A DNA stretch of 64,000 bases from Patescibacteria group bacterium (lineage in GTDB: Bacteria > Patescibacteriota > Microgenomatia > UBA1400 > CG1-02-47-37). The translations under genes were made by a program, and so were the position numbers. The notes beneath the pieces are model-generated. The model was given only the letters and a program-made list of their open reading frames with translations. It had not been told where the DNA came from and searched no databases. How positions within the stretch are numbered: the first letter of the stretch is position 1; each line of letters starts with the position of its first letter. Location: contig JAYEMX010000064.1 in assembly GCA_034718535.1 (NCBI GenBank), forward strand, positions 4,328 to 68,327. The letters are read 5' to 3'. Shown piece by piece: positions 37,335-55,574 of this stretch.

Positions 37335-38030
37335 ATGATTATTAGGATGCCATCAAAGAATAGGAATAAAGTTTATAAAGAAAACGGATATTATCATGTT
37401 TATAATCGTGGGGTTGATAAACGAAAAATTTTTATGGATGAACAAGATTATGCTGTTTTTTTGCATTTACTAAAGTATTATCTTTCTCCACCCAGCAAAG
37501 AAGACAAACATCCTTTGTCGGATACTTCTACAGCTGTGATTAGGCCTAGGCCAATTGAAAATTTACATCAAGAGGTTAATTTACTTGCTTATTGTTTGAT
37601 GCCAAACCATTTTCATTTATTGATAAAACAAAAAAGTATTGATGGTATGACAAAACTAATTCATAAACTACTAACTATTTATTCAATGTATTTTAATAGG
37701 CGTCATAAACGTATTGGCCATTTGTTTCAAGGTTGTTATAAGGCAGTTTTAGCTGATAATGACGAGCAGGTTTTGCATCTATCTCGATATATACACCTTA
37801 ATCCAGTTAAGCTGACAGGGTCTGACCCTGTCAGGTGGCCATACTCAAGTTTGGCTTATTATTTAGGGGAGAAAACTGCTAAGTGGGTGAAACCTAAAGA
37901 AATACTTGAGTGTTTTGAAAAGATAGAAAAGAATAAACTAACAAATAAAAACTACAATTCTTATAAAGAATTTGTTTTTGACGATAAAAAAGATTCTAAA
38001 GAAACTGTTGGCAGGTTTTCTATTGATTGA
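37335..38030 (+). mobile_element. RAYT-type HUH tyrosine transposase (IS200/IS605 TnpA-like, Y1). The likely true start is MPSKN at 37347, matching the N-terminus of RAYT-2.
   Basis: YHVYNRG...LMPNHFHLL (HUH)...SRYIHLNPVK (catalytic Tyr); flanked by REP-1 copies and carrying one internally. Confidence 0.8.
37812..37834. repeat. REP-1 palindrome ctgacagggtctgaccctgtcag inside the RAYT-1 CDS, encoding LTGSDPVR
   Basis: Perfect palindrome, in-frame. Confidence 0.7.
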
Positions 38031-38048
38031 CAGGGTCAGACCCTGTCA
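38028..38048. repeat. REP-1 palindrome; its first 3 nt are the RAYT-1 TGA stop
   Basis: tgacagggtcagaccctgtca. Confidence 0.75.
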
Positions 38049-38063
38049 GTGGTGTATTTCTTT

Positions 38064-38690
38064 TTATTTGATGATGAGGTGAAGGGTGGTTTGGGTGGAT
38101 TTTTGGCGACGAGAAGTGGATTTTAGTTTGAGTTCCTGAGCGCCTGAGAGTCCATTAAAAACAGTGGTAAAATTACCATCTGATTCAAGATTAATAATTT
38201 TTCCATTTAAAGTAAGAGTGGCATCGTGATTAGTTTTACCTTTAATCAAAACCGGGGTAGCAAGAGTTTGACCATTTTTAGGTTTAAAGACAATTAATTT
38301 GGGTGGGCGATTAAGCTTGTAAAAGGATAAAGCCAGATATGAGGTAAATAAAAGGCCAATAATGATGGCAGTGATAATATTTCGAATGGAAGAAGATGGT
38401 TGCCAGGGAGAATTTAAGGGTTTGGTTAAACCCTTGGGGATAATCTTTTTTTTGCTTTTTTGATAGTCTCTTTTAAAAACAGCAGTGGTTTTATTGGGAT
38501 CTAATCCTAAAAGTTTGGCGTAGTTTTTAATAAAGCCAAGAATATAAGTGTAGGCGGGGAGTTTTTTATATTGATTTCTTTCCAGGGCTTTAATGGTGTT
38601 AACCGGAAGTTTTAGTTTAGATGAAACCGAAGTATAAGTGAGTTTCTTTTTTAGTCTGGCTGTTTTTAGTAAATCCCCTGCTTTTAGCAT
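38064..38690 (-). CDS. rodZ: RodZ-like cytoskeleton protein (N-terminal HTH, TM, C-terminal domain)
   Basis: HTH-XRE-like N-terminus (LLKTARLKKKLTYTSVSSKLKLPVNTIKALE), TM AIIIGLLFTSYLAL. Confidence 0.5.
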   Translation of the reverse strand: MLKAGDLLKTARLKKKLTYTSVSSKLKLPVNTIKALERNQYKKLPAYTYILGFIKNYAKLLGLDPNKTTAVFKRDYQKSKKKIIPKGLTKPLNSPWQPSSSIRNIITAIIIGLLFTSYLALSFYKLNRPPKLIVFKPKNGQTLATPVLIKGKTNHDATLTLNGKIINLESDGNFTTVFNGLSGAQELKLKSTSRRQKSTQTTLHLIIK

Positions 38691-38692
38691 AG

Positions 38693-40837
38693 TTATTCTT
38701 GATCATGAGATTGAGATAAAAAATTGTTGGCATTTGATATTAAAATATCTCTCGCTTTAGCCCCTTTACCAGGACCAACAATATTGGCTTTTTCAAGTTG
38801 ATCCAAGATTCTAGCGGCTCGAGCATAACCAATTTTTAATCTTCTTTGCATTAAAGAAGCAGAGGCTTTATTATACTGAATTATCATTTTGACAGCGTCC
38901 TTAAAAAGACTATCTCTTTCTTCTTTATTTGAATTAAGAACGGCGTTGGGCTTACCTTTATATTTACTGGTAACTTCTTCAGTATATTCAACTTTGAATT
39001 CGGATTTTTTTAAGAACTCTATTAAGCTTTTAGTGTCTCTGTCTGATAAAAAAGTACCTTGTATACGAGTGGGTTTAGATTGGGTTGGAGGAATATAAAG
39101 CATGTCTCCTCGGCCAAGTAATTTTTCCGCTCCAGGAGAATCAATAATAACCCTTGAATCAACCATGGAATTAACATTAAAAGAAATGCGGCAATTAATA
39201 TTGGCTTTAATTAAACCGGTTAAAACATCGACCGAAGGTCTTTGAGTGGCAAGAACCAAATGAATACCGGTGGCCCTAGCCATTTGGGCTAGTCTGGTAA
39301 TTGAGTCTTCGACTTCAGAGGGAGCATAAAGAATAATGTCTGCCAATTCGTCGATAACTATAACCAAATATGGTAAAGCCTGAAAACCTGAAAGTTCATT
39401 ATAACTAGCGATATTTCTAGCTCCAACTTCAGAGAATATTTTATAACGTCTTTCCATTTCCGATGTGGCCCATTTTAAAGCTGAAACGACTTTTTCGGGT
39501 TCGACAATAACCGGAGTCAGTAGGTGAGGAATATCATTATATAAAGTTAACTCGACTCTTTTGGGATCAACTAAGATAAACTTAACTTCTTCAGGGCTGG
39601 AGCGAAATAAAATACTACTAATAATAGAGTTAATACAGACAGATTTACCGGAACCGGTAGCTCCGGCAATAAGAACGTGAGGCATTTTGTCAATATCGGC
39701 AATAACCGGTTTTCCGGAAACGTTTAAACCTAAACTAAAAGCCAGTTTAGATTTTTCATTTTTTAGACTTTTCGAGGAAAGCATCTGACTTAGAGGGACT
39801 ATTTCGAGAGAACGGTTTGGTAATTCCAATCCAACCAGTGATCTACCTGGAATAGGAGCTTCAATACGAATTTGGCCTTGAGGTGCAGCAAGAGCTAAGG
39901 CTAGATCATTTTGAAGACTGGTAATTTTACTTAGTTTGGTGCCTTCGGCTATTTTGATAGCATATTGAGTAACAGCCGGTCCACGATTAACTTCTTCTAC
40001 TTTAGCTTTAATCCCAAAACTTTCCAAAGTTCTTTCAATAGTAGCGGCATTTTGTTTAACATCACCACGATCTGCCTTGGCTGTTTGAATATCTTTTAAA
40101 AGAGATAAAGGTGGATAGTGCCACATTTTTTGTTGAGCTCCGGGTAAATTACTAATAATTGAGGAGGTTTGTTTAGCTGAGGTTATTGATGGTTTTGACT
40201 TAGTTTTGGGTTTAACTGAAGGTTTGGTGGTTATAGTGGATTGAGTAGGATTGTCATCCTCGTCCATACCTTTAATAGTAAAACCCGAATCATTGGGTTT
40301 AAAGAGTGGTTTTTTTTTACTTTGAATGGATTCAAAAGCCTTTTTAAAGTTGGCAATAATTTTCTGAAGACTTAAAATAATGTCTTCCAGGCTAGTTTCA
40401 AAAATAATAACAAAGCTGATAAAAATGCCAGCTAATAAAACCAGAAAGGTTCCGGATTTGTTGATTAGATTAACCAGACTGATCCAAATCTCCCGACCAA
40501 TAGTTCCGGCCCTGGTAAGACTAATAGTGCTGATAAGTAAACATAAAGAACCAATAAATACGTTGGGTTTGGTTATTCTCCATTTTAATCTCGTTAGCAT
40601 TAATCCAGAAGCAAGAAAAATAAAAGGAAGTAAAAAAATACCCCAACCAAATAAAGAATTAAAAAAAGTATATATGGTTTCTAAAAACGGACTTTGGCGA
40701 GAAAGAGAAACCATGATTAGCGCACCAATTAAAATTAATCCTGTTGAAGAAAGAGTATATATGGTTTCTTTGGGAAGTTTTAATTTATATGGTTGTTTTC
40801 TTTTTCCCTTTGTGGATCTTTTCTTTTTCTTAGCCAT
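38693..40837 (-). CDS. ftsK: DNA translocase FtsK/SpoIIIE
   Basis: N-terminal TMs, Walker A GATGSGKS motor domain, C-terminal gamma domain. Confidence 0.88.
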   Translation of the reverse strand: MAKKKKRSTKGKRKQPYKLKLPKETIYTLSSTGLILIGALIMVSLSRQSPFLETIYTFFNSLFGWGIFLLPFIFLASGLMLTRLKWRITKPNVFIGSLCLLISTISLTRAGTIGREIWISLVNLINKSGTFLVLLAGIFISFVIIFETSLEDIILSLQKIIANFKKAFESIQSKKKPLFKPNDSGFTIKGMDEDDNPTQSTITTKPSVKPKTKSKPSITSAKQTSSIISNLPGAQQKMWHYPPLSLLKDIQTAKADRGDVKQNAATIERTLESFGIKAKVEEVNRGPAVTQYAIKIAEGTKLSKITSLQNDLALALAAPQGQIRIEAPIPGRSLVGLELPNRSLEIVPLSQMLSSKSLKNEKSKLAFSLGLNVSGKPVIADIDKMPHVLIAGATGSGKSVCINSIISSILFRSSPEEVKFILVDPKRVELTLYNDIPHLLTPVIVEPEKVVSALKWATSEMERRYKIFSEVGARNIASYNELSGFQALPYLVIVIDELADIILYAPSEVEDSITRLAQMARATGIHLVLATQRPSVDVLTGLIKANINCRISFNVNSMVDSRVIIDSPGAEKLLGRGDMLYIPPTQSKPTRIQGTFLSDRDTKSLIEFLKKSEFKVEYTEEVTSKYKGKPNAVLNSNKEERDSLFKDAVKMIIQYNKASASLMQRRLKIGYARAARILDQLEKANIVGPGKGAKARDILISNANNFLSQSHDQE

Positions 40838-40859
40838 AAAGTAATTATATAATAATTTC

Positions 40860-40937
40860 AGGTTCCGAACTAAAATATCGGAAACCTGCCTGCCATGCCT
40901 ATCGGCAGGTAAACCGGCAAGGCAGGGTTCGGAACCT
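40860..40937. repeat. Long PAL variant: perfect outer arms aggttccgaac/gttcggaacct enclose a 55-nt GC-rich insert with nested inverted repeats (cctgcc...ggcagg)
   Basis: Read directly; lies in the rnj-ftsK spacer. Confidence 0.55.
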
Positions 40938-40942
40938 AAAAG

Positions 40943-42283
40943 TTAACGGTTTTGATTGATTCGTATCTCTTTAGTTTTTATGGTTTCTGTCAAGAAATAA
41001 TTATTTGAGTGATCGAACTCAAGAACTTGAGCTGTTTTAGGAATGATGACTTGTTTAGAGTGATAGCCCATTTCTTTAGCTAATTTTTCATATTGGCGCA
41101 TATGTCTAAAACTGCCACCGATGGGATAAACATAACGAGCATTAACTAACTCCATTAAAAGCTGAATCTCTCCAGCAGAAGCATGACCCGAGACGTGAAG
41201 GTCTTCAATCATTTGGCTATGATTAACCGTGACTCCGAGTTTGGCTATTTGATCAAGAACTTTGTAAACCAAAGTTTCATTGCCCGGAATAATATCTGAC
41301 GAAAAAATAATTTTGTCGGTTAATTTTAATTTTAAAGTTCTATGAGTACCGGCGGCAAATCTGGTTAAAGAAGAACCTTCTTGGCCCTGACTGCCGGCAA
41401 TAATAACACAAACTTGATTATCTCGATATTTTTTTAGTTGATTTGGTTTAATAATGGCTTTAGATGAAACTTTTAAAAATCCAAGTTTGATAGCGATGGT
41501 AGTATTTCTTTCCATGGATCTACCGATAAAACAAATTTTTCTTCCCAAACTAATGGCTACATCAACTGCTTGTTGAATCCGATGAATTTGAGAAGACATG
41601 GTGGTAAAAATCAGACGACCATTCCAATAGCTAAATTCACGATGAATGGCTGGAGTTAAGGTAGCTTCTGAAGGAGTAAAACCCTGTCTTTCTCCTCTTA
41701 AGCAGTCAGAAATTAAACAAAGAATTTTCTTTTGACTTAAATTAACAATTTTTTGAAAGTTGGGAGGACGGTGGTCGATTGGAGTTAAATCAAATTTGTA
41801 GTCGGTACCATGATAAATATTACCAACCGGCGTTTCGATGACAAAATGAAAAGTATCTGGAACCGAGTGAGTAACATGGATAGGGTGAATAGTAAATAGT
41901 CCGAGTTTAATTTGATCTGATTCTTTAAAAACAGTAATTTTTTGATTTAATTTAAAGTCTTTGAGACGATCTTGAGCAAAACCAGCGGTTAAGCGAGAAG
42001 CATAAATGGGATGGTTGCCAATTTTAGGTAAAATGTGAGGCAGGGCAGCATGATGGTCATCGTGCCCGTGAGTCAAAATAATTCCTTTAATATTAATCTC
42101 CGGGTGATTTAGTAGATAACTAATATCGGGAATTAAGATATCATTAGTTTCTTTATCGTCCGGAAAGCCAATCCCGCAATCAATGATAATGGCTTCTTTC
42201 CCATATTGATATAGGTACATGTTATTAGTAACCATGCCCGGCCCACCGCCGAGAGGAATGATGCGTAAATTGTTATTGTTCAT
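40943..42283 (-). CDS. rnj: Ribonuclease J (metallo-beta-lactamase / beta-CASP)
   Basis: LTHGHDDH motif; beta-CASP region. Confidence 0.8.
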   Translation of the reverse strand: MNNNNLRIIPLGGGPGMVTNNMYLYQYGKEAIIIDCGIGFPDDKETNDILIPDISYLLNHPEINIKGIILTHGHDDHHAALPHILPKIGNHPIYASRLTAGFAQDRLKDFKLNQKITVFKESDQIKLGLFTIHPIHVTHSVPDTFHFVIETPVGNIYHGTDYKFDLTPIDHRPPNFQKIVNLSQKKILCLISDCLRGERQGFTPSEATLTPAIHREFSYWNGRLIFTTMSSQIHRIQQAVDVAISLGRKICFIGRSMERNTTIAIKLGFLKVSSKAIIKPNQLKKYRDNQVCVIIAGSQGQEGSSLTRFAAGTHRTLKLKLTDKIIFSSDIIPGNETLVYKVLDQIAKLGVTVNHSQMIEDLHVSGHASAGEIQLLMELVNARYVYPIGGSFRHMRQYEKLAKEMGYHSKQVIIPKTAQVLEFDHSNNYFLTETIKTKEIRINQNR

Positions 42284-43347
42284 ATTGGTAAATAGTTTTT
42301 AATATTTTTTAAGGTTAAGTGAATGTGCTTAGTTTGACCTTCAACTATTAGTTTAGCAATTTTATGACAAATTCCTTTAATAGTCCGCTCCAAAGTTCTG
42401 ATACCGGCATCAAAGCCCAGAGGTCTAACTATTTTTGGCCAAATATCATCATCTAAACTTAAATTGTCTTTGGTTAAACCAGACTGTTTTAAAGTATGAG
42501 GTAAAATATAATTTTTAGCGATAGTAATTTTTTCATTATCAGTATATGAAGGCATTTGGATAATTTCCAAACGGTCAAGAACAGCAGTGGCAATATTCCT
42601 AGTATTGTTGGCCGTAGCTATAAATAAAACGTTTGATAAATCGACTGGATAATCCAAATAATGATCGGTAAATTGAGAGTTTTGTTCCGGGTCAAGTAGT
42701 TCAACTAAAACACCCATAATATCGGCTTGAGCATTAGCGCCGACTCTATCAATTTCATCCAGCAAAAAAATTGGATTTTTGGTTTGAGCTTTTTTTAGAG
42801 CTTTAATAATTAAACCCGGTTCGGCATCGGGATGAAGTCTAGATTGACCCCTTAAATCTCTGGCTGATCCTAAACCGCCAAAAGGAATACGGACATATTT
42901 TCTTTGCATGGCTTCAGCCAATGAAGGACCAAAGGTGGTTTTACCAGTACCAACTAAACCAACTAAACATAAAATTGGGGCCCGTGAAATTTTATTATTA
43001 TAATTAAGATTATTTGACTGCGAACGAGTTAATGACAAAACAGAAATATATTCCAATATTTTTTCTTTAACTTGATCCATACCATAATGATGTTTATCTA
43101 AAATTTCTTTGGCGATTTTTAAATTTAGTCTATCTTGACTAAATTTTGTCCAAGGAAGACTTATAATCCAATCCAAATATTTTGAAGTACGTTCAAATTC
43201 GATTGAATAACCTCGGTGCTCCACCATTAAAGAAAGTCTTTTAATCATTTCTAAAGTTTTGATTTTTAACTCAGGGGGAAGAGTAATTTTAGATAGTCTA
43301 TTTTCCAATTTTTGGGTTTCTTTAACTAGGGCAGATGTCTGGTTCAT
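42280..43347 (-). CDS. Lon-family AAA+ ATPase module without LON N-terminal or S16 protease domains
   Basis: Lon signatures (KILEYISV, ILCLVGLVGTGKTT, LLDEIDRVG, LDPEQN, LFIATANN, LDRLEII) in a 355-aa protein ending before any protease Ser-Lys dyad; ATGA-coupled to rnj. Confidence 0.6.
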   Translation of the reverse strand: MNQTSALVKETQKLENRLSKITLPPELKIKTLEMIKRLSLMVEHRGYSIEFERTSKYLDWIISLPWTKFSQDRLNLKIAKEILDKHHYGMDQVKEKILEYISVLSLTRSQSNNLNYNNKISRAPILCLVGLVGTGKTTFGPSLAEAMQRKYVRIPFGGLGSARDLRGQSRLHPDAEPGLIIKALKKAQTKNPIFLLDEIDRVGANAQADIMGVLVELLDPEQNSQFTDHYLDYPVDLSNVLFIATANNTRNIATAVLDRLEIIQMPSYTDNEKITIAKNYILPHTLKQSGLTKDNLSLDDDIWPKIVRPLGFDAGIRTLERTIKGICHKIAKLIVEGQTKHIHLTLKNIKNYLPI

Positions 43348-43362
43348 AGGGCAAATGTGTTT

Positions 43363-45525
43363 CTAATGTTGTCGAGACCGACGACTATTAAAGTTACCAC
43401 TTGATCTTTGAGGGCTTGATTGCTGGCGTTGTCTAGCTTGATCTTCTTGTTCGGGAGTTAAAGTAGTTAAATCAATTCTATTCATTTCGTCTATTTTGGT
43501 AACTCTAACATGGAGAGAGTCACCGATTTTAACTACGTCGTTAATATTTTTAACAAATTGATCTGATAGTTTACTAATATGGACCATGCCATCTCTTCCG
43601 GGAAGTAATTCAACAAAGGCACCATAGTTTTCAACTCTAACAACCGTGCCATCAAATTCTTCACCAACTTGAATTTCTCTGGTTAGGCCTTTAACCCAAG
43701 TAACGGCTCTGTTTAAATTTTCATCAGTTTCTCCGGTAATGGTGACACAACCATCATCTTCGACATTAACTTCACACTCAGTAGATTTAATAATTTCTTT
43801 GATTTGTCTGCCACCCGGACCAATCAGTTCACCGATTTTTTCTACTGAAATATTAAGGGTGGCGATTTTGGGAGCATAAAGAGAAAGTTTTTTTCTCGGT
43901 GTAGCTAAGGTTTTGGCCATTGATTCCAAGACGGTTAGTCTGGCTATTTTAGCTTGGTTTAAAGCGGTTTCTAAAACTTTAAATGGTATACCGGAAATTT
44001 TAATATCCATTTGTAAGGCGGTAATGCCGTCTTTAGTGCCGGCTACTTTAAAATCCATATCACCAATATGATCTTCTAAACCTTGAATGTCGGTTAAAAT
44101 AGTATAGTCGTCTTCTTGTTTCATTAAACCCATAGCAATACCGGCGACTGGTTTTTTTAGAGGCACGCCAGCATCCATTAATGAAAGAGATGAGCCACAA
44201 ACAGAGGCCATAGACGAAGAACCATTGCTTGACATAATTTCGGAAACAACCCTGATAGTGTAGGGAAAGTTTTCTTTGGTTGGAAGCATTGGTTCAATAG
44301 CTCTTTCAGCTAAGGCTCCATGGCCAATTTCTCTTCTTTTTGGCCAACCAATTCGGCCGGTTTCACCAACACAAAATGGAGGAAAATTATAATGATGGAT
44401 ATATCTTTTCTTGGTTTCACCATTTAAATCTTCAATTAATTGTTCCAGCCTGGGTGAACCTAAAGTAACAACAGAAAGAGCTTGAGTAGCTCCTCTTTTA
44501 AACATGGCAGATCCGTGAGTTCTTGGAAGAAGACTAACTTTTGAAGAAAGATCTCTAACTTGATCAGTGGTGCGACCATCCGGTCTGATTTTTTTATCAA
44601 AAAGTTGAGTTCTTAATACTTGGTTAAAATAATTATTAATAACTTCTTTGATTGTATTGGGTTCTATATCTTCGAGTTGATTGATAACAGCTTGTTCGAT
44701 TTCATAAATTTCATTTTTAGGTGAACCTGCTTTTAATCTTTTAATAAAGTCGTCAAGTGAAGATTTGGATTTGGCTAAGATTTCTTTTTTATCTGTTTCA
44801 GAAATTTTACTTTCCAATACTTCTACTTTTTCAGTTCCAATTTCTTTTACTAATTGATTGATAACTTCTGTTATTTTTTTAATTTCTTCTCCGGCTGTTT
44901 CCAAGGCTTTGATGGTTAATTTTTCGGAAATTTCATTGGCTCCAGCTTCAACCATAACAATAGCCTGCTTAGATCCGGAAACAACTAAATCAAGTTTTGA
45001 AGTCTCCAGTTCTTTTTTAGTCGGATTAATAATTAAATTACTTTTTGGGTCAGTGCCGATTCTAACAGCTGCAATTGGACCTTTAAAAGGAATGTTTGAA
45101 ATACTTAAGGCGGCTGAAGTGCCGATTAATCCCAAAATGTCAGGATTGGTTTGTTTGTCGTAGGATAAAATCGAGACAATAACTTGAACTTCCGACATAT
45201 AGTTTTTTGGGAATAACGGCCTAATTGATCGATCAATTAGTCTGGCTTTTAAAATAGATTCGTCTGTTGGCTTACCTTCTCTTTTAACCCAACGAGAGCC
45301 TTTAATAATACCGGCGGCATAAAGCTTTTCTCGATATTCAACCGATAAAGGAAAATATCCCAAACTGGGGTTTTCTCTGCCGGCTACCACGGTAACTTGA
45401 ACAACAGTTTCTCCGGAAGTAACGATAACAGCACCGGAAGCTTGCTGAGCATAACTACCGACTTCAATAGTTATCTCTTTATTATTAATAGTTACAGATT
45501 TTGAGGTTATTTTAGTGTTTGACAT
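43363..45525 (-). CDS. pnp: Polyribonucleotide nucleotidyltransferase (PNPase) with an R/Q/S-rich C-terminal tail
   Basis: Two RNase PH domains plus KH and S1. Confidence 0.92.
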   Translation of the reverse strand: MSNTKITSKSVTINNKEITIEVGSYAQQASGAVIVTSGETVVQVTVVAGRENPSLGYFPLSVEYREKLYAAGIIKGSRWVKREGKPTDESILKARLIDRSIRPLFPKNYMSEVQVIVSILSYDKQTNPDILGLIGTSAALSISNIPFKGPIAAVRIGTDPKSNLIINPTKKELETSKLDLVVSGSKQAIVMVEAGANEISEKLTIKALETAGEEIKKITEVINQLVKEIGTEKVEVLESKISETDKKEILAKSKSSLDDFIKRLKAGSPKNEIYEIEQAVINQLEDIEPNTIKEVINNYFNQVLRTQLFDKKIRPDGRTTDQVRDLSSKVSLLPRTHGSAMFKRGATQALSVVTLGSPRLEQLIEDLNGETKKRYIHHYNFPPFCVGETGRIGWPKRREIGHGALAERAIEPMLPTKENFPYTIRVVSEIMSSNGSSSMASVCGSSLSLMDAGVPLKKPVAGIAMGLMKQEDDYTILTDIQGLEDHIGDMDFKVAGTKDGITALQMDIKISGIPFKVLETALNQAKIARLTVLESMAKTLATPRKKLSLYAPKIATLNISVEKIGELIGPGGRQIKEIIKSTECEVNVEDDGCVTITGETDENLNRAVTWVKGLTREIQVGEEFDGTVVRVENYGAFVELLPGRDGMVHISKLSDQFVKNINDVVKIGDSLHVRVTKIDEMNRIDLTTLTPEQEDQARQRQQSSPQRSSGNFNSRRSRQH

Positions 45526-45531
45526 GTGTTT

Positions 45532-45807
45532 TTAATTTTTTAATTTTAATTTTAATTTTTTAATAGTATTTTCGTGTCTTTTTTTATCTTTGCTTTTTAA
45601 GTAATTTAGTAAACGACGACGTTTACTGACCATGGCTAATAAGCCTTTTCTTGAATGATTGTCTTTTTTATGTTTTTTAAGATGTTCTGTAAGTTCTTTA
45701 ATCCGTTCTGTAAGAAGAGCAATTTGAATTTCTGGTGAACCGGTATCGCCTTTTTGTGTGGCAAATTTTTTAATTATTTTTTCTTTTTTTGAAGTAACTA
45801 ATGTCAT
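45532..45807 (-). CDS. rpsO: 30S ribosomal protein S15
   Basis: [17 protein letters not shown]...HSRKGLL signature. Confidence 0.9.
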
Positions 45808-45847
45808 AACTCTGGTATTTTATCAGATAAAGGTAAATATATAAAGG

Positions 45848-46846: not shown

Positions 46847-46857
46847 AATTTTTCTTT

Positions 46858-46934
46858 AAGGTTGAACCCTGTCTCACTTTGTTCGACTAAACATCTCGAC
46901 TTTTAGTCGGGATTTCCGGAGAGGGTTCAACCTT
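46858..46934. other. Nested inverted-repeat structured element of about 80 nt in the infB to DHH-like spacer (outer aaggttgaaccct / agggttcaacctt; inner gactaaa / tttagtc)
   Basis: Read directly. Confidence 0.4.
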
Positions 46935-46986
46935 ATTATTTCTACTTAATTTCTGATTATCTCAAAGATATCCTTTAAAGTCAATG

Positions 46987-48462
46987 TTATAGGATATTTT
47001 TGTAGGCAATAAGTTTATCTTTTGGTTGAAAGTCCAACTTAGAAGTAAAACTAACTCCACATTGTTCCCCTTTTATGACTCTATCAACAATTTTCTTTTC
47101 TTGATTAATGGATTTAATTTTACTATCAGCAATGGTTTGTTTTTTTCTAATTAAATGAACTTTACTTCCAGGGGTAAGTTTACCGCTAATAACCTCACAA
47201 CCGGCTATTTTTGCACCTTTAACAGTAAACTCAGCAATGATTTTGGCTGTAGCCAATTCCTGTTCATCTATGGTGGGTTCTAATATTTTTAAAATTTCTT
47301 TTTGAAGATCGTCTAAAAGTTTGTGAATTAAAGAATAAGTTTTGATTAAAATTGATTCGCGATCAGCTAAATTGATGACAGAAGTAGCTGATTTAACCCT
47401 AAAGGCAATAATTTTGGCTTTAGTGGGTTGAGCTAGTAATACATCTGATTCGGAAATGTTTCCAACCCCTGAAGAAATTAAAGTGATGTCGTCGCCCAAA
47501 TTTTGAATAATGGCCTCTAAAGTTCCTTTTGTGTCTGCTTTTAGAATTATTTTGAGGGTTTGTTTGTCAGTTTCAGACTCAGAGGGTTCGGAGTTTTCTA
47601 GGGCAACATCTTCTGATTTTTCCGCCTTGACTTGGCCTTTGGCTCTTGATTTAATCGGGATTGAGACATCGGCTTTTTCGGGTTCTTTGGTAGTAACAAT
47701 AGAGCCAACCGGCGGTACTTGTTTAAAGCCCAAAATAAGAACTGGTTGACCGGGAGTAACTTGAGTTAAATTTTTGTTGTTTTCATCAAATAAAGCTTTG
47801 ACTTTACCAGAAGTATTTTGAGTAAAAATAGGGTCAGATATTTTTAAAGTTCCTGTTTTAACAATAATAGTGACAACAGCCCCTCTTTTTTGATCAAGAG
47901 ATGACTCGATAACTATGCCGGAAAAATCAGCCTGATCTTTATTTTTTAGTTCTAAGATATCAGTTGAAAGTAAAATCATTTCAAGAAGTTGATCTAAATT
48001 TTTCCCTGTTTTAGCAGAAACAGGAACACAGACTATATCTCCACCAAAACCCTCAACTGCAACTCCGGCATCAGCCAAATCTTTTTTTACAATGGCGGGT
48101 GAGGCATTAGGTAAATCCATTTTATTGATAGCTACTAAAAAAGGGACTTTTGCCAGCTTAATATGATCTAAACATTCTTTAGTTTGAGGTTTTATTGATT
48201 CAATGGCATCAATGACTAAGATAACCAAATCGGTTGCTTGAACCCCCCTAGCTCTCATGGCTGCAAAAGCAGCATGACCAGGAGTGTCGATAAAAGTTAA
48301 AGGTCTAGTTTTGTGTTTTATTTGATAGGCTCCAATATGTTGAGTAATCCCGCCGGACTCATTATTGGCAACTTTTGTTTTTCTTAAAGCATCAAGAAGG
48401 GTGGTTTTGCCATGATCGATGTGACCCATGACGGTAATAACTGGCGGCCTATTTTTTTTCAT
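46987..48462 (-). CDS. infB: Translation initiation factor IF-2, short form (491 aa) beginning at the G domain
   Basis: VITVMGHIDHGKTTLLD, DTPGH, NKMD motifs. Confidence 0.88.
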   Translation of the reverse strand: MKKNRPPVITVMGHIDHGKTTLLDALRKTKVANNESGGITQHIGAYQIKHKTRPLTFIDTPGHAAFAAMRARGVQATDLVILVIDAIESIKPQTKECLDHIKLAKVPFLVAINKMDLPNASPAIVKKDLADAGVAVEGFGGDIVCVPVSAKTGKNLDQLLEMILLSTDILELKNKDQADFSGIVIESSLDQKRGAVVTIIVKTGTLKISDPIFTQNTSGKVKALFDENNKNLTQVTPGQPVLILGFKQVPPVGSIVTTKEPEKADVSIPIKSRAKGQVKAEKSEDVALENSEPSESETDKQTLKIILKADTKGTLEAIIQNLGDDITLISSGVGNISESDVLLAQPTKAKIIAFRVKSATSVINLADRESILIKTYSLIHKLLDDLQKEILKILEPTIDEQELATAKIIAEFTVKGAKIAGCEVISGKLTPGSKVHLIRKKQTIADSKIKSINQEKKIVDRVIKGEQCGVSFTSKLDFQPKDKLIAYKNIL

Positions 48463-49630
48463 CTAGTTTTTCCTGAATTTCTTGAACTGTTTTTGGGCCC
48501 AAACCTTTGATGTTTTTGAGATCTAAACTAGATGCTCCTTTAAGGTCTTTTATGGTGGTTTTTTTAGCCTGAATTAAAGCGTTTCTGGCCCGACTGGAAA
48601 GTTCCAACTTATCTATTTCATACTCAAGATCGTCTTTGGTGGCACTGACTTTTTTGCCTTTGGGGCCCATTAAATTAATTTTGTATCCGGTTAATTTAGC
48701 TGCCAGCCTGACATTTTGACCTTCTCTGCCTATAGCTAAAGATAGTTGATCTTCCGGAACAATGATGTCGGCAATTTTATCTTTTTCATTAATTTTTACT
48801 TTTAAGTTTTCAGCTGGTTGAAGAGAAGAGGCAATGAATTTAGAATTATCTTCAGAGAACTCAATGATGTCTATTTTTTCTCCACCGAGTTCATTAATAA
48901 TAGCCTGAACCCTAACTCCTTTTTGGCCAACACATGAACCAACAGGGTCAACTCCGGCTTGAGTTGAAGCAACAGCGACCTTAGAACGATTGCCAGCTTC
49001 TCTGGCAATAGCTTTGATTTCCACAGCTTCTGAATTTACTTCTGGAACTTCTCTTTTAAATAAGCCTAAGACTAGTTCTTGATCGGCTCTGGAAACAATA
49101 ATTTGTTGACCTCTAGCGGTTTCTCTAATATCTTTAATATAAAGGGTTAAGCGTTGATTTAGTCGATAGTGTTCGTCACGAGCCTGTTCTTCCGGAGGCA
49201 TTAAACCTTGACCTCGACCGATATCACAAATAATAAACTTACCTTCAAATCTTAAAACCATACCATTAACCATAGAACCAACTCTATCACTATACTCATC
49301 AATAATAGCGTCTTTTTCTTCTTCTCTGATTTTTTGTAAAATCACTTGCTTGGCTGTTTGAGCAGCAATACGACCAAAATTTGGAGGAGTAACGTCTTTT
49401 TTGGGTTTATCTTCAATAATCTGAAAAATTTTGACTGATCCAGTAATTTCGTTTAGTTCAGCCTCAAATTCTAGTTCTTCGTCAACCTCATGATCTTTTT
49501 TATAGGCGGCAACTAAAGCTGATTTTATGGTTTTGATAACCGCTTCAATCGGAATACCTCTTTCCGAACAAATCTGATTTAAGGCCGAGGTAAATTCAGT
49601 TCTGGCAGATTTTGGAGTGATTGTTTTCAT
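48449..49630 (-). CDS. nusA: Transcription termination/antitermination factor NusA
   Basis: NusA N-terminal, S1, KH1/KH2 and C-terminal HhH region. Confidence 0.88.
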   Translation of the reverse strand: MKTITPKSARTEFTSALNQICSERGIPIEAVIKTIKSALVAAYKKDHEVDEELEFEAELNEITGSVKIFQIIEDKPKKDVTPPNFGRIAAQTAKQVILQKIREEEKDAIIDEYSDRVGSMVNGMVLRFEGKFIICDIGRGQGLMPPEEQARDEHYRLNQRLTLYIKDIRETARGQQIIVSRADQELVLGLFKREVPEVNSEAVEIKAIAREAGNRSKVAVASTQAGVDPVGSCVGQKGVRVQAIINELGGEKIDIIEFSEDNSKFIASSLQPAENLKVKINEKDKIADIIVPEDQLSLAIGREGQNVRLAAKLTGYKINLMGPKGKKVSATKDDLEYEIDKLELSSRARNALIQAKKTTIKDLKGASSLDLKNIKGLGPKTVQEIQEKLDEKK

Positions 49631-49671
49631 ATTAATCAGCAGGCTATGAATAACTGCAAGTTATATTTAAT

Positions 49672-49696
49672 AAAAAAGATGGGTTTCAATCCATCT
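49672..49696 (-). terminator. Hairpin agatgg-guuucaau-ccaucu followed by a U6 tract on the minus strand, downstream of the membrane-protein gene and upstream of nusA
   Basis: Read from sequence. Confidence 0.4.
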
Positions 49697-49798
49697 CTAA
49701 GTTTGTAATTTATTTAACTAGGCATAGTTTATCATGAGAAATGGTCTAGGGCAAGAGACCTACAAGAGACCTGCGGGGGATTGGGTAAAGAGAGTGGG

Positions 49799-50899
49799 TT
49801 ATTTTTTTAGTTTTTGGTTGAAGCGAGGGAGAATAAGGCGGTCAATGGTAAAGGGAGAGATTAGTGAGATGACTTCCAAAGTGAAAATGGAGAGTTCAAA
49901 AGCACTGGGGATTAGTCTAGTAATATAGTAAGCGCCGATGCCCAAGAGAGCCGCGCTTCTAAGATTATCTTTAAATAATTGTTTTTGAGTGGAAAAAATA
50001 ATGTTTTCGGGAATATTTTGAGATCTGGCGATCCTGGCCTTTTTAAAAATTTTCGGGATATTAAGCCAAAGCACAACTATAAAAGCGCCAATAGCGGTAA
50101 TGGCATTTAGAGTATAGTTGGGAACACTAACATCGCCTGAAAAAATTCTTAATTCCCAACCCTGAGGATAGTAACGAACCAAAATATAAGCTATTACAAA
50201 AAATAAAGTGAGAAACCCAGTAGAGTTTTTTAAGAAAGATTTTAAATAGTAGCTTAAAGTGGCAGTTTTAGGGTTAATTTTTTTTATGTCCGGAAGTCGA
50301 TGATAGTATTTAATTAATTTACCGTGAAGTAATTTATAAATTAAGATTAAGCCCCAAATAATAAAAACCCAACCCCAACCATAATCCTTGGTAGTAATTG
50401 GAATAGGGTATGGCAATCTGAAGATTGGGTCTTTAATGGGATAAGCGGGGTATTTTGAAAAAGCAAAAAGTAAATTTGGATTAAGTTTTATTGTGTAAAA
50501 ATCAGTTAAAAAAAGTTTACCAATGGAAATATAAGAAATAGTTTGGGTGAAGAAGTTAATAATGTACCAAAGAATGGTCGGGTCTCCTTTTTTTACAGAT
50601 TGTTTGATTAAAAACTGTTGATGTTTTTGATTTTTAACACTTTCTACTTTAGATTCAAATTCTTTAATGTGAGTTGAAAGAACTAGGTTTATAATTCTGA
50701 AGGGAACCATAAAAAAAGTTTGGAAAATACCAAGGCCAATGACGGCAATCCACATGTGTTGGATGTAGTGATAGATAAAGAAAAGAATCGAGGCGTAAAA
50801 TTTTACAGTAAGCCCAGAAAAAAATGCATAAATTAATAAGATTAAAAAAATTAAAGAAAAAAAAGTAGATGTTTTGGGGAGATTGGATGATTTATCCAT
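49799..50899 (-). CDS. Hypothetical polytopic integral membrane protein (possibly YidC/Oxa1-like insertase; uncertain)
   Basis: Multiple predicted TMs; follows dnaJ. Confidence 0.3.
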   Translation of the reverse strand: MDKSSNLPKTSTFFSLIFLILLIYAFFSGLTVKFYASILFFIYHYIQHMWIAVIGLGIFQTFFMVPFRIINLVLSTHIKEFESKVESVKNQKHQQFLIKQSVKKGDPTILWYIINFFTQTISYISIGKLFLTDFYTIKLNPNLLFAFSKYPAYPIKDPIFRLPYPIPITTKDYGWGWVFIIWGLILIYKLLHGKLIKYYHRLPDIKKINPKTATLSYYLKSFLKNSTGFLTLFFVIAYILVRYYPQGWELRIFSGDVSVPNYTLNAITAIGAFIVVLWLNIPKIFKKARIARSQNIPENIIFSTQKQLFKDNLRSAALLGIGAYYITRLIPSAFELSIFTLEVISLISPFTIDRLILPRFNQKLKK

Positions 50900-50902
50900 A
50901 CT

Positions 50903-51742
50903 TTAGGTAAGTGTATCAAACTTTTTTAAAGCCTGCTTTTGAGCTCGGGTAAGTTTTTGCGGAATTTTTATAATAAGACGAATATATTGATCTCCTCGAC
51001 CAACTCCTCTTAAGTGAGGCATACCCTTGCCCTTAAGACGAATTAAAGTATTTGGTTGAGTACCTGAACGAACTTTAAGCTTAATATTTTTTCCGTCAAC
51101 AGTTGGAACGCTGATAGTTCCACCAAGTGTAGCTTGGGCAAAAGTGATCTGATGATTAATAAAGATATCATGTCCTTCCCTCTTAAAGGTTTTATGTGGT
51201 TTGACTTCGATGCTGACAAAAAAATCATTAAACCTAATTCTGGTGCCGTCATCGGCTCCCGGAGGAATTTTTATTTTATATTCTTTACCTTGATGAATAA
51301 GATTTTTTTCAACTCCTTTAACAGCCTGGATAAAATCGATGGTAATACCATAACGAGGAATTTGTCTGGCTTGTCTAAAGGGTGAAGCTCCTCCACTAAA
51401 AAAAGATTCAAAAATTTCAAAAGGATCGGTAAATCCACCAAAATTAAAACCTCCGGTTCCTTGTCCACCAGTGGTGGAGTATGAGTAAGTAAATGGACTT
51501 TTAAATCCCCTTGATGGGTCAAAAGCAGCATGACCAAATTGATCATATTGTTTTTTCTTTTTAGGGTTTGAAAGAACCTCATAGCTTTCAGAGATTTCTT
51601 TAAACTTTTCGATGGCTTGTTTGCTTTTGTTTTTGTCTGGATGATATTTTAGGGCCAGCTTGCGATAAGCTTTTTTAATCTCAGCTGTTGAGGCATCCTT
51701 TTTAACCCCAAGGACTTCGTAAAAATCTCGCTTGGTAGTCAT
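50903..51742 (-). CDS. dnaJ: J-domain chaperone, DnaJ-like type II (J domain, G/F region, C-terminal domains, no CxxCxGxG zinc finger)
   Basis: J domain with HPD (ALKYHPDKN); Cys-free. Confidence 0.8.
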
Positions 51743-53655
51743 TAGTCTTCAATGACTTCGCCTTCTTGGGCTTGAGTTTTATCTTCAGATTTTTTATTTT
51801 TGTCTTTATTTTTGGTTGATTTTTTGCCTTTGGATTTTTTGGCAGCTTCTTGTTTTTGCTGGGCTTTATACATGGCAGCACCAACTTTTTGTAAAGATTC
51901 GGATAAATCTTTAGATTTAGCCTCCAGTTCATCTTTGTCAGCTTTTTCCAAGACACCTTTTAGGGATTTGATTTTTTCCTCAATGTCTTTTTTATCTTTT
52001 TTGTCGACTTTATCACCGGCATCTTTTAAAGTTTTTTCGGCGGTAAAGATTAAAGTGTCGGCTTGATTTTTAATTTCCACTTTTTCTTTTTTAAGTTTAT
52101 CTACTGCTGCATGCTTTTCCGCCTCTTTAGTAATGTTTTCCACTTCTTCGTCGGACAATCCAGTAGAGCCTTTAATGGTTATTTTTTGCTCTTTGCCAGT
52201 GGCTTTGTCTTTAGCAGAAACATTTAAAATACCGTTAGCATCAATATCAAATTTAACTTCGATTTGAGGAACGCCACGAGGAGCCGGTGGGATTCCGTCC
52301 AAGATAAATCTTCCAAGAGATTTATTATCAGCAGCCATGGCTCTTTCTCCCTGAAGAACATTAATTTCCACGGAGGTTTGATTGGCGGCGGCTGTGGAAA
52401 AAGTTTGAGATTTTGAAGATGGAATAGTGGTATTTCTTTCGATTAACGGAGTAGAGACACTGCCTAGAGTTTCTAGTCCTAAAGTAAGAGGAGTTACATC
52501 TAAAAGCAAAACATCAGTAACATCACCCATTAAAACACCAGCTTGAATAGCGGCACCGATAGCAACTACTTCATCTGGATTAACGGATTTATTTGGCTCT
52601 TTACCAAAGAATTCTTTAACCACTTGCTGAATTTTAGGCATTCTGGTTTGACCACCAACTAAAATTATTTCATCAATGTCTTTTTTATCAAGTTTGGCGT
52701 CTTTAAGACAAGATTTAACCGGCTTCATGGTTTTTTCAATAAGATCATCTACTAATTTTTCCAAATCAGCTCGAGTTAATTTCATGGTTAAATGAAGGGG
52801 TTGCCCGTCTTTGCTTTGAGTAATAAATGGTTGATTAATTTCTGTTTCTCCTGAAGAGGAAAGTTCTATTTTGGCTTTTTCGGCCGCATCTTTGATTCTT
52901 TGTAAAGCTTGTTTGTCTGCTTTTAAGTCAATACCATGTTCTTTTTTAAACTTTTTAGCGATGTGGTCAATTATTTTTTGATCAAAATCATCTCCTCCAA
53001 GGTGAGTATTACCATTGGTGGCTTTAACTTCGTAGACGTTATCTCCCAGTTCTAAAATAGAAATGTCAAAAGTGCCACCGCCCAAATCATAAACAGCTAT
53101 GGTTTCCACTTTTTTCTTTTCAAGGCCATAGGCTAAAGCGGCGGCAGTAGGTTCATTAATAATTCTTTCTACTTTAAGACCGGCAATTTCACCAGCTTGC
53201 TTGGTAGCTTGACGTTGAGCGTCGTTAAAATAAGCAGGAACAGTGATAACGGCTTTTTCAACTTTTTCTCCCAAGTAATCTTCGGCATCGGTTTTAGCTT
53301 TGGCAAGAATTTTGGCGGCAATTTCTTGTGGAGAATATTTTTTATTGTTAACTTCGACATTAGCAATATCATCTTTGCCCCTAACTACTTTATATGGAAC
53401 CATATTAATAGTTTTTTGAGTATTTTTGTCTGAAATTTTTCTACCCATTAAACGCTTGACAGAGTAAACTGTGTTTTCCGGATTTAAAACCATTTGGCGT
53501 TTAGCAATATCGCCGACTAAATTTTTGACTGGTTCTACTATTGAAGGAATTAAATTATTACCTTCAGATGAGGGGATGATTTTAGGAGAGCCTCCCTCCA
53601 TAACAGCAATGGCTGAATTAGTGGTTCCTAGATCGATTCCAATTATTTTTGACAT
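51742..53655 (-). CDS. dnaK: Chaperone DnaK (Hsp70)
   Basis: [18 protein letters not shown] Hsp70 signatures. Confidence 0.95.
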
Positions 53656-53657
53656 AT

Positions 53658-54059
53658 TTATTTGCCTCCTTGGCCAACTTTTACTTGAGCAGGGCGTAAA
53701 ACTTTTTCATGGATAGTATAGCCCTTTTTGATAATTTCTATTATTTTGTTTTTTGGTCCTTTGATTAGTTCAACACAATCTGATGTTTTAGGATCAAACT
53801 CTTGATTTAAAACTTTTATTTCCTTAACTCCTTCTAAATCTAAAATTGATTTAAACTGATTGATGGCCAGTTTTAAGCCTTTATCTTTTAAATGTTGATC
53901 AGCTCTTTCAAGGTCATCTAAGACTGAAAGAAGTTTGTCAATTATAGATGAGATAGCAAATTTGACATAATCAGATTTATCTTTTTCTATTCTTTTTTTT
54001 AAGTTTTGATAGTCGGCTAAAGCTCTCTTTAATTGATTTTTAATAGGTGATTTTTTCAT
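53658..54059 (-). CDS. grpE: Nucleotide exchange factor GrpE; start at the internal Met MKKSP
   Basis: GrpE family; position between hrcA and dnaK. Confidence 0.8.
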
Positions 54060-54063
54060 AATA

Positions 54064-54789
54064 TTACCAATTTTTGGATATTTCTGTAACAAGTTCCCCA
54101 AAATATCTGATAGTAGGAATGACAGATGGATAATTTAATCGAGATGGTCCGATAATGCCAAGCGAGCCATTGATGTCTCCGGTTTTAAAGTCGGTAAAAA
54201 CTAATCCCAAAGTTTGGAAAAAATCATTATTAAAATCTTCGCCGATTATTAAATGAATGGTTTCATCTCCGGTAACATGCGAAAATAAGTTACTTAATTT
54301 ACTATATTCGTCGATCATAGAGAGAACTTCGCGAGTAACATCAATATCATAAAATTCAGGATTGTTTAAAATATTGGCATGACCAGCATGAAAAACATCC
54401 CCTTTATTAGTGTATGAAAGAGCCAAGCAATCGGTTTTATCAGCTAAAACTCGAGTAATTTCTTTTAAAAATTTATTAACTTCAAAGCGGTGGTCCCAAA
54501 CTTTTTCTTTAACAGCTACTTCGTCGGCTACAGATAAGTCGTCTTCTTTGAGAAGTTCTCTGACATAATACTTTAAACCCATAGGTGTAGGAGTTCGTCC
54601 GGCTGAGGTATAGGGTTGGTTTAAAAATCCAGATTTGGTTAAAGTTACCATTTCATTTCTAATAGTAGCCGGAGAGATACCAAGATCATATTTTTTTTCA
54701 AGAGTAACACTACCAACCGGTTCGGCGGTTTCAGTATATTCAGTAATAATTGCTTTTAAAATTTGAGCTTGTCTATTTGAAAGTTGCAT
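54064..54789 (-). CDS. hrcA: Heat-inducible transcription repressor HrcA; start at MQLSNRQAQIL. The ORF-track N-terminal extension covers the CIRCE element and a REP.
   Basis: Winged-helix N-terminus; hrcA-grpE-dnaK-dnaJ order. Confidence 0.8.
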   Translation of the reverse strand: MQLSNRQAQILKAIITEYTETAEPVGSVTLEKKYDLGISPATIRNEMVTLTKSGFLNQPYTSAGRTPTPMGLKYYVRELLKEDDLSVADEVAVKEKVWDHRFEVNKFLKEITRVLADKTDCLALSYTNKGDVFHAGHANILNNPEFYDIDVTREVLSMIDEYSKLSNLFSHVTGDETIHLIIGEDFNNDFFQTLGLVFTDFKTGDINGSLGIIGPSRLNYPSVIPTIRYFGELVTEISKNW

Positions 54790-54791
54790 AA

Positions 54792-54818
54792 TTAGCAGAA
54801 GGATAACACGACTGCTAA
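54792..54818. promoter_or_regulatory. CIRCE-like operator TTAGCAG-N13-CTGCTAA, immediately 5' of the hrcA start
   Basis: 27-nt element with perfect 7-nt inverted arms; outer TTAGCA/TGCTAA match the CIRCE consensus. Confidence 0.55.
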
Positions 54819-54847
54819 TTAGTGTCAAGGATTGTTTTGGCAATAAA

Positions 54848-54870
54848 CCTACAAGGAGAGTCCTTGAAGG
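54848..54870. repeat. REP-2 palindrome (cctacaaggagagtccttgaagg) upstream of RAYT-2
   Basis: Imperfect inverted arms around the agag centre. Confidence 0.65.
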
Positions 54871-55048
54871 CTTATACTTGAGGGTGTATACTGAATTTAA
54901 TGCCTTCAAAAAATGCTTTAAAAATCTATAAAGAAGATTCTTATTATCATATTTATAATCGAGGAGTGGCTAAGGCAAATATTTTTAAAGACAAAAAGGA
55001 TTATAAAGTTTTTCTTGATTATTTGAAAATATATTTATCTCCTGTCGA

Positions 55049-55071
55049 CCTACAAGGAGAGTCCTTGAAGG
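55049..55071. repeat. REP-2 copy inside the RAYT-2 CDS (encodes DLQGESLKV)
   Basis: cctacaaggagagtccttgaagg in-frame. Confidence 0.65.
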
Positions 55072-55352
55072 TTTCACCATCAAGAGAATTGAAAAATTAT
55101 TCAGATGAAATTATCTTGGTTGCTTATTGCTTAATGCCAAACCATTTTCACTTATTAATTCATCAAAAAAATAAGGATTCTATTAATTACTTTATGAGAT
55201 CTTTGGCTACAAAATATTCAAGATATTTTAATACTAGATATGATAGGGTTGGCCCATTATTTCAAGGTGTTTATAAAGCTGTTAAGGTTGACAATGAAGA
55301 TCAGTTGGTTTATTTGACTAAATATATTCATCGAAATCCTATTAATATCCTA

Positions 55353-55375
55353 CCTACGAGGAGAGTCCTTGTAGG
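55353..55375. repeat. REP-2 copy inside the RAYT-2 CDS (encodes LPTRRVLVGY), directly after the NPI(N) motif
   Basis: cctacgaggagagtccttgtagg in-frame. Confidence 0.65.
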
Positions 55376-55547: not shown

Positions 55548-55574
55548 CACCTACAAGGAGAGTCCTTGTAGGTG
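55548..55574. repeat. REP-2 perfect palindrome cacctacaaggagagtccttgtaggtg, 1 nt after the RAYT-2 TAG stop, followed by a partial arm duplication
   Basis: Read directly. Confidence 0.75.

Follow-up and report, generated by a model that had tools for sequence, protein, structure and literature searches.

REPtrons such as that of Escherichia coli rayT (Nunvar 2010; Ton-Hoang 2012; Messing 2012; Corneloup 2021) consist of a gene for a REP-associated tyrosine transposase (RAYT), bordered by cognate repetitive extragenic palindromic (REP) hairpins that are also found elsewhere. The RAYT protein adopts a Y1 HUH fold with HUH and Tyr motifs, each paralog has its own REP, and the genes are single-copy, syntenic and vertically inherited and co-evolve with their REPs. 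In E. coli, bacterial interspersed mosaic elements (BIMEs) lie on both sides of rayT and none lie inside the gene. Two RAYT genes (RAYT-1 and RAYT-2) were analyzed in a stretch of 64,000 nucleotides (the window) from a Patescibacteria group bacterium (GCA_034718535.1, contig JAYEMX010000064.1, positions 4,328 to 68,327). They share these features with the described REPtrons but differ in that cognate hairpins are also located in frame at two fixed sites of the coding sequence (CDS) and over the stop codon, in a REP copy number that looks low within the 64-kb window and in their Patescibacteria host. Such in-gene hairpins are widespread in one Patescibacteria RAYT clade, are translated and evolve in concert with the flanking and genome-wide REPs, as judged from the window and from flanks of up to 3 kb per homologous locus.

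Short palindromic repeats that are translated in frame in otherwise normal proteins reportedly also occur as Rickettsia palindromic elements (RPEs) inside open reading frames (ORFs). Such elements and the intragenic REPs known in other genes (Di Nocera et al. 2013, PMC3733652) resemble the present copies, one of which, in the gene for methionine aminopeptidase (MetAP), is such a case. Their descriptions concern insertions through which unrelated genes gain residues, whereas here the main host gene is that of the cognate transposase, the positions are conserved across the family, the in-gene copies co-evolve with the extragenic ones, and the copies at one of the two coding sites (site B) and in the MetAP gene are length-neutral. 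IS200/IS605 elements encode a related Y1 transposase (TnpA) and likewise carry hairpins at both gene ends (subterminal LE and RE hairpins). The present system differs from them in its syntenic locus and its internal hairpins, and several near-identical copies of a whole element at variable locations are not observed; the paralogs are 49% identical and their location is conserved. Rolling-circle initiators such as phiX174 gene A and pT181 repC contain the nick site inside their own gene, so that a nicking enzyme (HUH-type in phiX174) has its DNA target in its own CDS. Those targets are replication origins of proven function, whereas the in-gene sites described here are known from sequence. Literature searches returned no description of cognate REPs inside RAYT genes or of their concerted evolution, and no RAYT work in Patescibacteria. 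To the extent of these searches, the in-gene layout of cognate REPs is a previously undescribed variant of the REP–RAYT system.

RAYT-1 (37347..38030, + strand) encodes a 227-residue protein from an MPSKN start, with a second, upstream ATG at 37335 also in the open frame, and RAYT-2 (54900..55547, + strand) encodes a 215-residue protein. Both proteins match the Y1_Tnp family (Pfam PF01797; E=1e-9 for RAYT-1 and E=2e-11 for RAYT-2). The HUH motif of RAYT-1 is NHFH and its catalytic Tyr is located within YIHLNP; NHFH and Y-x-H-x-N-P are invariant in the homolog alignment. An AlphaFold (AF2) model of RAYT-1, with a mean predicted local distance difference test (pLDDT) score of 84, has E. coli TnpA_REP bound to REP as its best PDB match (4ER8_A, E=3e-6), followed by the IS608 and ISDra2 TnpA proteins. 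The match came from the fold search, and a RAYT profile compared with PDB chains by sequence gave nothing relevant. The protein is thus a Y1 HUH nuclease that has the HUH motif and one catalytic Tyr, as in RAYT/TnpA_REP. Each RAYT gene is flanked on both sides by a palindrome that is also present elsewhere (extra copies at 4476, 20576 and 448, a low number within the 64-kb window). One gene per REP family, vertical inheritance and no movement as a unit were found in the window and four relatives. In these relatives (L161, L163, L165 and L167; 76-82% protein identity), RAYT-1 is syntenic, standing upstream of an HTH_25 gene and ftsK (window 37347-40837). Because its neighbors are kept in them, RAYT-1 appears to behave as a resident, vertically inherited gene.

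Each RAYT gene additionally carries its own hairpin 25-50 nucleotides (nt) ahead of the ATG, and once more at its end, where the hairpin overlaps or adjoins the stop codon. The REP-1 core GACAGGGTCWGACCCTGTC is present in four window copies, at 37296, 37814, 38029 and 4476, and REP-2 CTACAAGGAGAGTCCTTGWAG is present at 54849, 55050, 55354, 55551 and 20576, with a degenerate copy at 448. No match arose in 100 shuffles, compared with 4 REP-1 and 8 REP-2 matches observed (the latter representing six distinct sites, two counted on both strands). Three of the four REP-1 copies and four of the six REP-2 copies are located at their own RAYT gene. REPs are extragenic in the strict sense, but four of these ten copies lie inside CDSs and two more lie over stop codons.

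At RAYT-1, the upstream copy (site U; 37288..37322, + strand) is located 25 nt before the start codon, has perfectly paired arms (17+17) and folds as single-stranded DNA (ssDNA) with -18.5 kcal/mol (z = -8.9). The copy at site B (37812..37834, + strand; ctgacagggtctgaccctgtcag) consists of perfectly palindromic arms (11+11) around a 1-nt loop. It is read in frame as CTG ACA GGG TCT GAC CCT GTC AGG and encodes LTGSDPV(R) straight after NPVK. Its loop base is T, compared with A in the extragenic copies, and the change is synonymous (TCT/TCA). The first three bases of the downstream copy (site D; 38028..38048, + strand) are the TGA stop codon of RAYT-1. At RAYT-2, the U copy (54848..54870, + strand) is a TTGAAGG variant with an A.A stem mismatch, 30 nt before the start codon. 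Site A (55049..55071, + strand), in the loop that connects helix A to the HUH strand, is read as C CTA CAA GGA GAG TCC TTG AAG G, encoding LQGESLK(V) in a frame that differs from that of site B. Site B (55353..55375, + strand) follows NPINIL, contains one G.T in its stem and is read as CCT ACG AGG AGA GTC CTT GTA GG, encoding PTRRVLVG. The D copy (55546..55576, + strand) is a 14+14 perfect hairpin over the last two bases of the TAG stop codon, with a duplicated 3' arm after it. Every REP copy folds as ssDNA far better than its shuffles, including the three in-gene copies (-11.7, -8.0 and -7.7 kcal/mol; z = -5.4, -4.2 and -2.9). An initial annotation had reported the perfect palindrome encoding LTGSDPVR after NPVK at 37812-37834 and REP-2 copies at 55353-55375 and 55049-55071. 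Its coordinates hold, as do its translations of both site-B copies, and on re-inspection the palindrome at site B is perfect in REP-1, while that in REP-2 has the single G.T.

The segment that follows NPxx at site B reads L-T-G-x-x-P-V in nearly all of 25 aligned homologs, with L-T-R-x-x-L-V as the main variant. The motif [LVIM]T[GR]xx[PL][VA] was detected in 88% of the close homologs (104 of the closest 118 that could be scored). Among the 104 motif-bearing homologs, the residue pair is G..P in 65, R..L in 21, G..L in 13 and R..P in 5, and the G..L combination corresponds to a G.T wobble. In the frame CTG ACA GGG ... CCT GTC, bases 1 and 2 of the Gly codon pair with bases 1 and 2 of the Pro codon, and a single change from a G-C to an A-T pair therefore converts Gly to Arg and Pro to Leu together. 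In 12 site-B DNA segments, 91% of the cells are paired and compensatory double changes occur at 8 of the 12 pairs. None of 500 shuffles reaches the observed pairing, and sliding the partner by 1-3 columns reduces it to 43% or less. Synonymous site-B positions pair too. RAYT-1 (ACA GGG ... CCT GTC) and RAYT-2 (ACG AGG ... CTT GTA) contain one hairpin in one frame with compensatory differences, and PTRRVLV of RAYT-2 is the R..L form of the RAYT-1 site-B hairpin. The shared position of the two palindromes, to which the initial annotation drew attention, is thus homologous, real and non-random, and the palindromes are not unrelated to each other. On this pairing evidence, the conserved object at site B is a nucleic-acid hairpin and not a peptide, and selection or copying at the site acts on the nucleic acid. 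Conservation of the encoded residues among homologs that lack any REP had been regarded as a sign of chance palindromy; the residues are indeed conserved, but because the hairpin is conserved, with G..P and R..L covarying as a change from G-C to A-T predicts.

The observation is far more general than the two window genes. A protein search for homologs gave 7,853 matches at E<=1e-10, and 160 loci encoding homologs (80 genomic and 80 metagenomic) were sampled. GC-rich hairpin families were searched in each gene and 150 nt on each side, and 141 loci were analyzed. A four-site layout (U, A, B and D) recurs in these loci, and the hairpin family of each locus is found essentially nowhere else in the gene. 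Site U is located 20-60 nt before the start codon, site A at about nt +155 to +214 between a YLS motif and CLMPNHFH, site B at about nt +420 to +535 between NP and YSS, and site D at or over the stop codon. The spacing of the layout is regular, at roughly 200, 300 and 200 nt. The hairpin sequence differs from genome to genome, and within a genome the in-gene copies reproduce it down to the loop bases (W2, CCTACAAGGAGAGTCCTTGTAGG; L115, CCTGCAGGGCCAGGCCCTGCAGG; L155, CCTGCGAGGAGACTCCTCGCAGG; L054, CTTCCGGGAGTCTCCCGGAAG; L083, CTGACAGGTATCATACCTGTCAG; L078, CTTGAAGGAACGCAACCTTCAAG).

When REPs were defined from the flanks alone, 53 copies were found in 68 kb of RAYT CDS. Other ORFs, searched over 350 kb, yielded 2 copies, and distant intergenic DNA, over 51 kb, yielded 10. 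REPs from a locus's own flanks match at site A in 20 of 90 loci, at site B in 23 of 90 and in the catalytic core in 0 of 90, and REPs from other loci match in 0.09-0.12% of pairings. Flank hairpins were detected in 103-109 homologous loci. Of 103 loci with a flank hairpin, 40 also contain one or more in-gene copies, and ten have copies at both sites. The proportion of perfect stems is 33% for the hairpins at site A and 30% for those at site B, compared with 33% at U and 45% at D. The reading frame of the hairpin varies between subclades and between sites A and B of one gene, and its orientation, judged by the loop, varies between loci.

Concerted change is observed at orthologous codons. In the syntenic orthologs of RAYT-1, sites U, B and D of each locus share a lineage-specific inner stem, and the site-B peptide follows it. 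The inner stem is GGGTCWGACCC in the window and L167 (peptide SD), GGGTCCGGCCC in L163 (SG), GGGACCGTCCC in L165 (TV) and AAGGCCCGGCCTT in L161 (RPGL). Each lineage displays several identical base changes at three sites, which therefore points to copying between the sites. Concerted evolution of this kind shows that the in-gene sites exchange sequence with other REP copies. In the E. coli TnpA_REP–REP co-crystal, the enzyme contacts the stem base and a 5' tetranucleotide but neither the loop nor the five pairs closest to the tip (PMC3479197). If this contact pattern holds here, it would explain why the outer stem, and with it the encoded L, T, G/R, P/L and V, is conserved across genomes. On the same condition, copying would account better than selection for recognition for the identity of inner stems within a genome. 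As for the 5' GTAG/GTGG tetranucleotide that is conserved beside the hairpin in E. coli-type REPs, REP-2 contains CTAC...GTAG only as paired stem ends, and REP-1 (TGACA...TGTCA) has none.

The in-gene hairpins do not lengthen the protein at site B. The site is of equal length in homologs with and without the hairpin and of about the length found in E. coli RayT (NPVK-HGWVKQVSD-WPFST in E. coli versus NPVK-LTGSDPVR-WPYSS in RAYT-1). The alignment with other RAYTs that had been called for thus shows that site B is not an insertion when compared with E. coli RayT or with homologs that lack the hairpin. The loop of site A exceeds that of E. coli RayT by about 20-27 residues, but clade members that carry a hairpin there and those that do not have loops of equal length. 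A host protein extended by the length of the element, as in RPE-like insertion, is observed neither at site B nor in MetAP.

The MetAP gene (4464..5201, - strand) contains a REP-1 copy (4475..4495, - strand) that encodes VTGSDPV in the conserved C-terminus without an indel. This C-terminus (EHTIAVTGSDPVILT*) aligns gap-free to those of solved MetAPs (EHTILITENGAEILT and EHSLAITKEGPRILT). It reads AVTGSDPVILT, compared with AVTKSGPVILT as is common in Patescibacteria, and the conserved Gly is displaced. Among MetAP orthologs (loci examined, L170, L171 and L172), one that is 81% identical has the same REP at the site, one that is 64% identical has ACAGGGTCCGGCCCTGT, which is the REP variant of the L163 RAYT, and one that is 69% identical is unconverted (GTT ACA AAA TCC GGC CCC ATT). 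These site states are those that would be expected from templated replacement seeded by partial similarity, and not from insertion of 21-25 nt.

The hairpins are subject to coding constraints. In the frame used (xTG ACA GGG), REP-1 contains no stop codon. The next frame is closed by TGA, and the third is closed only with T as the loop base, as in the in-gene copy; the reading frame is therefore fixed in the RAYT-1 clade. At site A of RAYT-2, a perfect TTGTAGG would create a TAG stop codon, which the TTGAAGG variant avoids. The variant is also found at the non-coding U copy of RAYT-2 and at 448, and likewise in L095 and L157. This distribution hints, as a lead only, that extragenic copies may receive sequence from the gene.

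Site A corresponds to RAYT-1 residues 47-76 and ends one to three residues before an invariant Arg (R68) that is aligned with E. coli R46. The start of site B, four residues beyond the Asn of Y-x-x-x-N, aligns with E. coli H123, and the first REP-encoded residue takes the place of this His. In E. coli, R46 contacts the hairpin and H123 is a metal ligand (PMC3479197). By this alignment, both REP-encoded peptides would be near the DNA-binding and catalytic surface. In the AF2 model, a structure prediction that the initial annotation had proposed, site A is a loop of low confidence (low pLDDT) and site B follows the helix of the catalytic Tyr.

Taken together, the best reading, which is somewhat favored, is that REP copies became embedded early in the clade and have been kept uniform by short-patch templated copying. 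Each of the two REPtrons comprises a RAYT gene with cognate hairpins at its flanks (U and D) and inside its CDS (A and B), and copies embedded early in clade history would be held uniform by template-directed copying of short patches between REP copies. Replication template switching at hairpins or gene conversion is the likeliest route, and RAYT-catalyzed strand exchange is a further possible one. Such copying would overwrite sequence and leave its length unchanged. Recognition by RAYT probably constrains the outer stem, which would explain why the encoded L-T-G/R ... P/L-V are conserved and covary. The inner stem and loop would drift, two or three encoded residues changing along with them, and the protein would tolerate this drift because sites A and B are loop-like segments. 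Part of the sequence of each RAYT protein thus appears to be set by its mobile repeat, and the in-gene copies could act as additional putative cis binding or cleavage sites. Quasi-palindrome correction and template-switch mutagenesis would, like gene conversion, lead to changes of the kind observed here, which restore hairpins, span several bases and leave the length unchanged, and to the concerted evolution of repeats that lie close together. Such processes have classically been studied at single E. coli loci and not as a long-term driver of protein sequence, the role that they may have here. REP evolution has been attributed to gene conversion (Higgins et al. 1988, as cited in PMC8266576).

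Several results weigh against early embedding followed by copying. No conversion tract or intermediate was observed, the copying mechanism being deduced, and in-gene copies occur in only 40 of the 103 loci with flank hairpins. Sites A and B were masked for a tree of 116 taxa. On this tree, the hairpin at site B (27 taxa) requires 14 gains or losses, compared with 24.3 for shuffled states, and that at site A (28 taxa) requires 19, compared with an expected 25.1 and a minimum of 19. By these counts, repeated gain is not cleanly separable from an ancient origin with decay. Hairpin-less homologs exhibit only background palindromicity at sites A and B, with no residue of decay. Neighbor genes at a similar distance from U and D hardly ever carry copies, and proximity alone is insufficient; the enrichment therefore leaves room for selection or for a mechanistic preference for the RAYT gene. 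The distribution of the hairpins appears to be clustered on the tree yet dynamic, and the copies are apparently dispensable in many lineages.

The main alternative, possible though doubtful, is that the in-gene hairpins are selected cis-acting sites, such that the RAYT protein binds or nicks the hairpins of its own gene, exposed as ssDNA in replication or transcription, or of its own mRNA. Autoregulation, a functional idea that the initial annotation had raised beside a recombination hotspot, or preferential cis action might follow, and the arrangement would be akin to that of the rolling-circle initiators phiX174 gene A and pT181 repC. The more than 100-fold enrichment in RAYT CDSs over other ORFs, immediate neighbors included, is consistent with such a role, as are the fixed positions and regular spacing (roughly 200, 300 and 200 nt), the similar intactness of in-gene and flank copies in the proportions of perfect stems given above, and the proximity of the encoded peptides to the R46-aligned Arg and the H123 position. 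However, about 60% of the loci with flanking REPs lack in-gene copies, which makes them dispensable, the loop-judged orientation varies between loci, and a REP copy of the same kind is located in the MetAP gene, where a RAYT-related function is implausible. On the sense strand, G.U mismatches are not in excess over A.C mismatches (15 versus 10 at site B; 7 versus 7 at site A), which speaks against mRNA structure. A conserved structure at the RNA level was rejected for this lack of a sense-strand bias, and an Rfam scan of the window returned no family. A bolder extension of the copying model, which we regard as rather unlikely, is that the RAYT gene keeps two protected in-frame seed copies and that REPs spread and homogenize by length-neutral overwriting and not by insertion alone, with enzyme and substrate evolution physically coupled. 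The in-gene copies would then exchange with the extragenic population; the lead is TTGAAGG, which is forced at site A of RAYT-2. If so, REP-dictated residues beside the hairpin-contacting Arg and the active site would couple the enzyme to its substrate.

Independent, recurrent insertion of REPs into the only two loops that tolerate extra residues, an origin that the initial annotation had considered, is improbable. REPs and palindromic elements are known inside ORFs (Di Nocera 2013, PMC3733652), the extended site A loop has a low pLDDT, frames differ between subclades and many gains and losses are needed on the tree, all of which would fit insertion. The same two sites, however, carry lineage-specific REPs in dozens of genomes, and length is unchanged at site B and at the MetAP site. 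The indel-rich, insertion-tolerant C-terminal region carries no copies, syntenic orthologs alter an existing in-gene hairpin in step with the flanks without new gains, and the site-B hairpins of RAYT-1 and RAYT-2 share one frame with compensatory differences. Far less probable still is chance palindromy with LTGxxPV kept for protein function. The motif is present in most close homologs, as a functional peptide would be, but the radical G/P to R/L covariation fits base pairing, synonymous positions pair as well, the copies are identical to extragenic ones, loop bases included, and no matches are expected by chance. Chance or a peptide motif is refuted by the G/P-R/L covariation, the concerted change of U, B and D, and the pairing test on 12 sequences.

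As a natural record, the clade bears on the questions of how REPs multiply and remain homogeneous and why a RAYT gene always has them at its flanks. Because the in-gene copies are anchored at orthologous codons, their changes can be traced base by base against the flanks and across genomes. This record displays concerted evolution directly and, together with the MetAP copy, points to a conversion-like, length-neutral spread of REPs. Protein sequence is here written in part by a mobile repeat, and this includes an essential housekeeping enzyme (MetAP), which has lost a conserved glycine to the repeat. The layout also supplies simple oligonucleotide substrates for assays of RAYT binding and cleavage in Patescibacteria.

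Variation in RAYT number and length was also observed. One metagenome-assembled genome (MAG; DS4.bin43, L022, L030 and L036) has three RAYT paralogs, each with a different hairpin, and several RAYT–REP pairs per genome seem common in the Patescibacteria RAYT group. More distant, shorter RAYTs (about 205 residues; Saccharibacteria MAGs are the source of several) tend instead to carry a doublet of hairpins on either flank and no internal copy. These doublets are REPIN-like, with the hairpins 15-40 nt apart, and again give four hairpins per locus (L010, L011, L030, L039, L049, L077, L119, L123 and L158). Truncated RAYTs as a sign of REP-to-REP deletion were considered and rejected; the genes in L016, L093, L096, L098, L157, L080 and L074 are full-length with non-ATG starts or cut at the locus end.

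The window is low-GC and gene-dense and contains ribosomal-protein, rpoB/C, FtsK, HrcA and LepA genes. By the names of identical or near-identical database proteins, it belongs to Patescibacteria, close to Beckwithbacteria. An extragenic REP-2 copy (20574..20598, + strand) is located between rpsG and fusA. The degenerate copy is a REP-1/REP-2 hybrid palindrome (448..470, + strand; cctacagggtcagtccttgaagg) in intergenic DNA with convergent ORFs on either side, and it looks like REP-2 outer arms combined with REP-1 inner sequence. The perfect extragenic REP-2 copies (20574-20612 and 55546-55590) are followed by a second 3' arm (TTGTAGGT nn TTGTAGGT), a tail that the in-gene copies lack. A third palindrome family, CACTCC(N)GGAGTG, has three intergenic copies (393-405, 417-429 and 13955-13966; 0 expected) and no matching RAYT gene in the window. 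In promoter and terminator scans, the D hairpin of RAYT-1 scores as terminator-like; counts are near the shuffle expectation, and no claim is made. At 37310-37339 and 54864-54892, the 3' arm of the U hairpin provides a weak -35-like hexamer, and the promoter-like match stops immediately ahead of the start codon. A CIRCE-like inverted repeat (TTAGCAGAAGGATAACACGACTGCTAA, about 54783-54820) precedes hrcA in a divergent intergenic region that is shared with RAYT-2 and its U hairpin.

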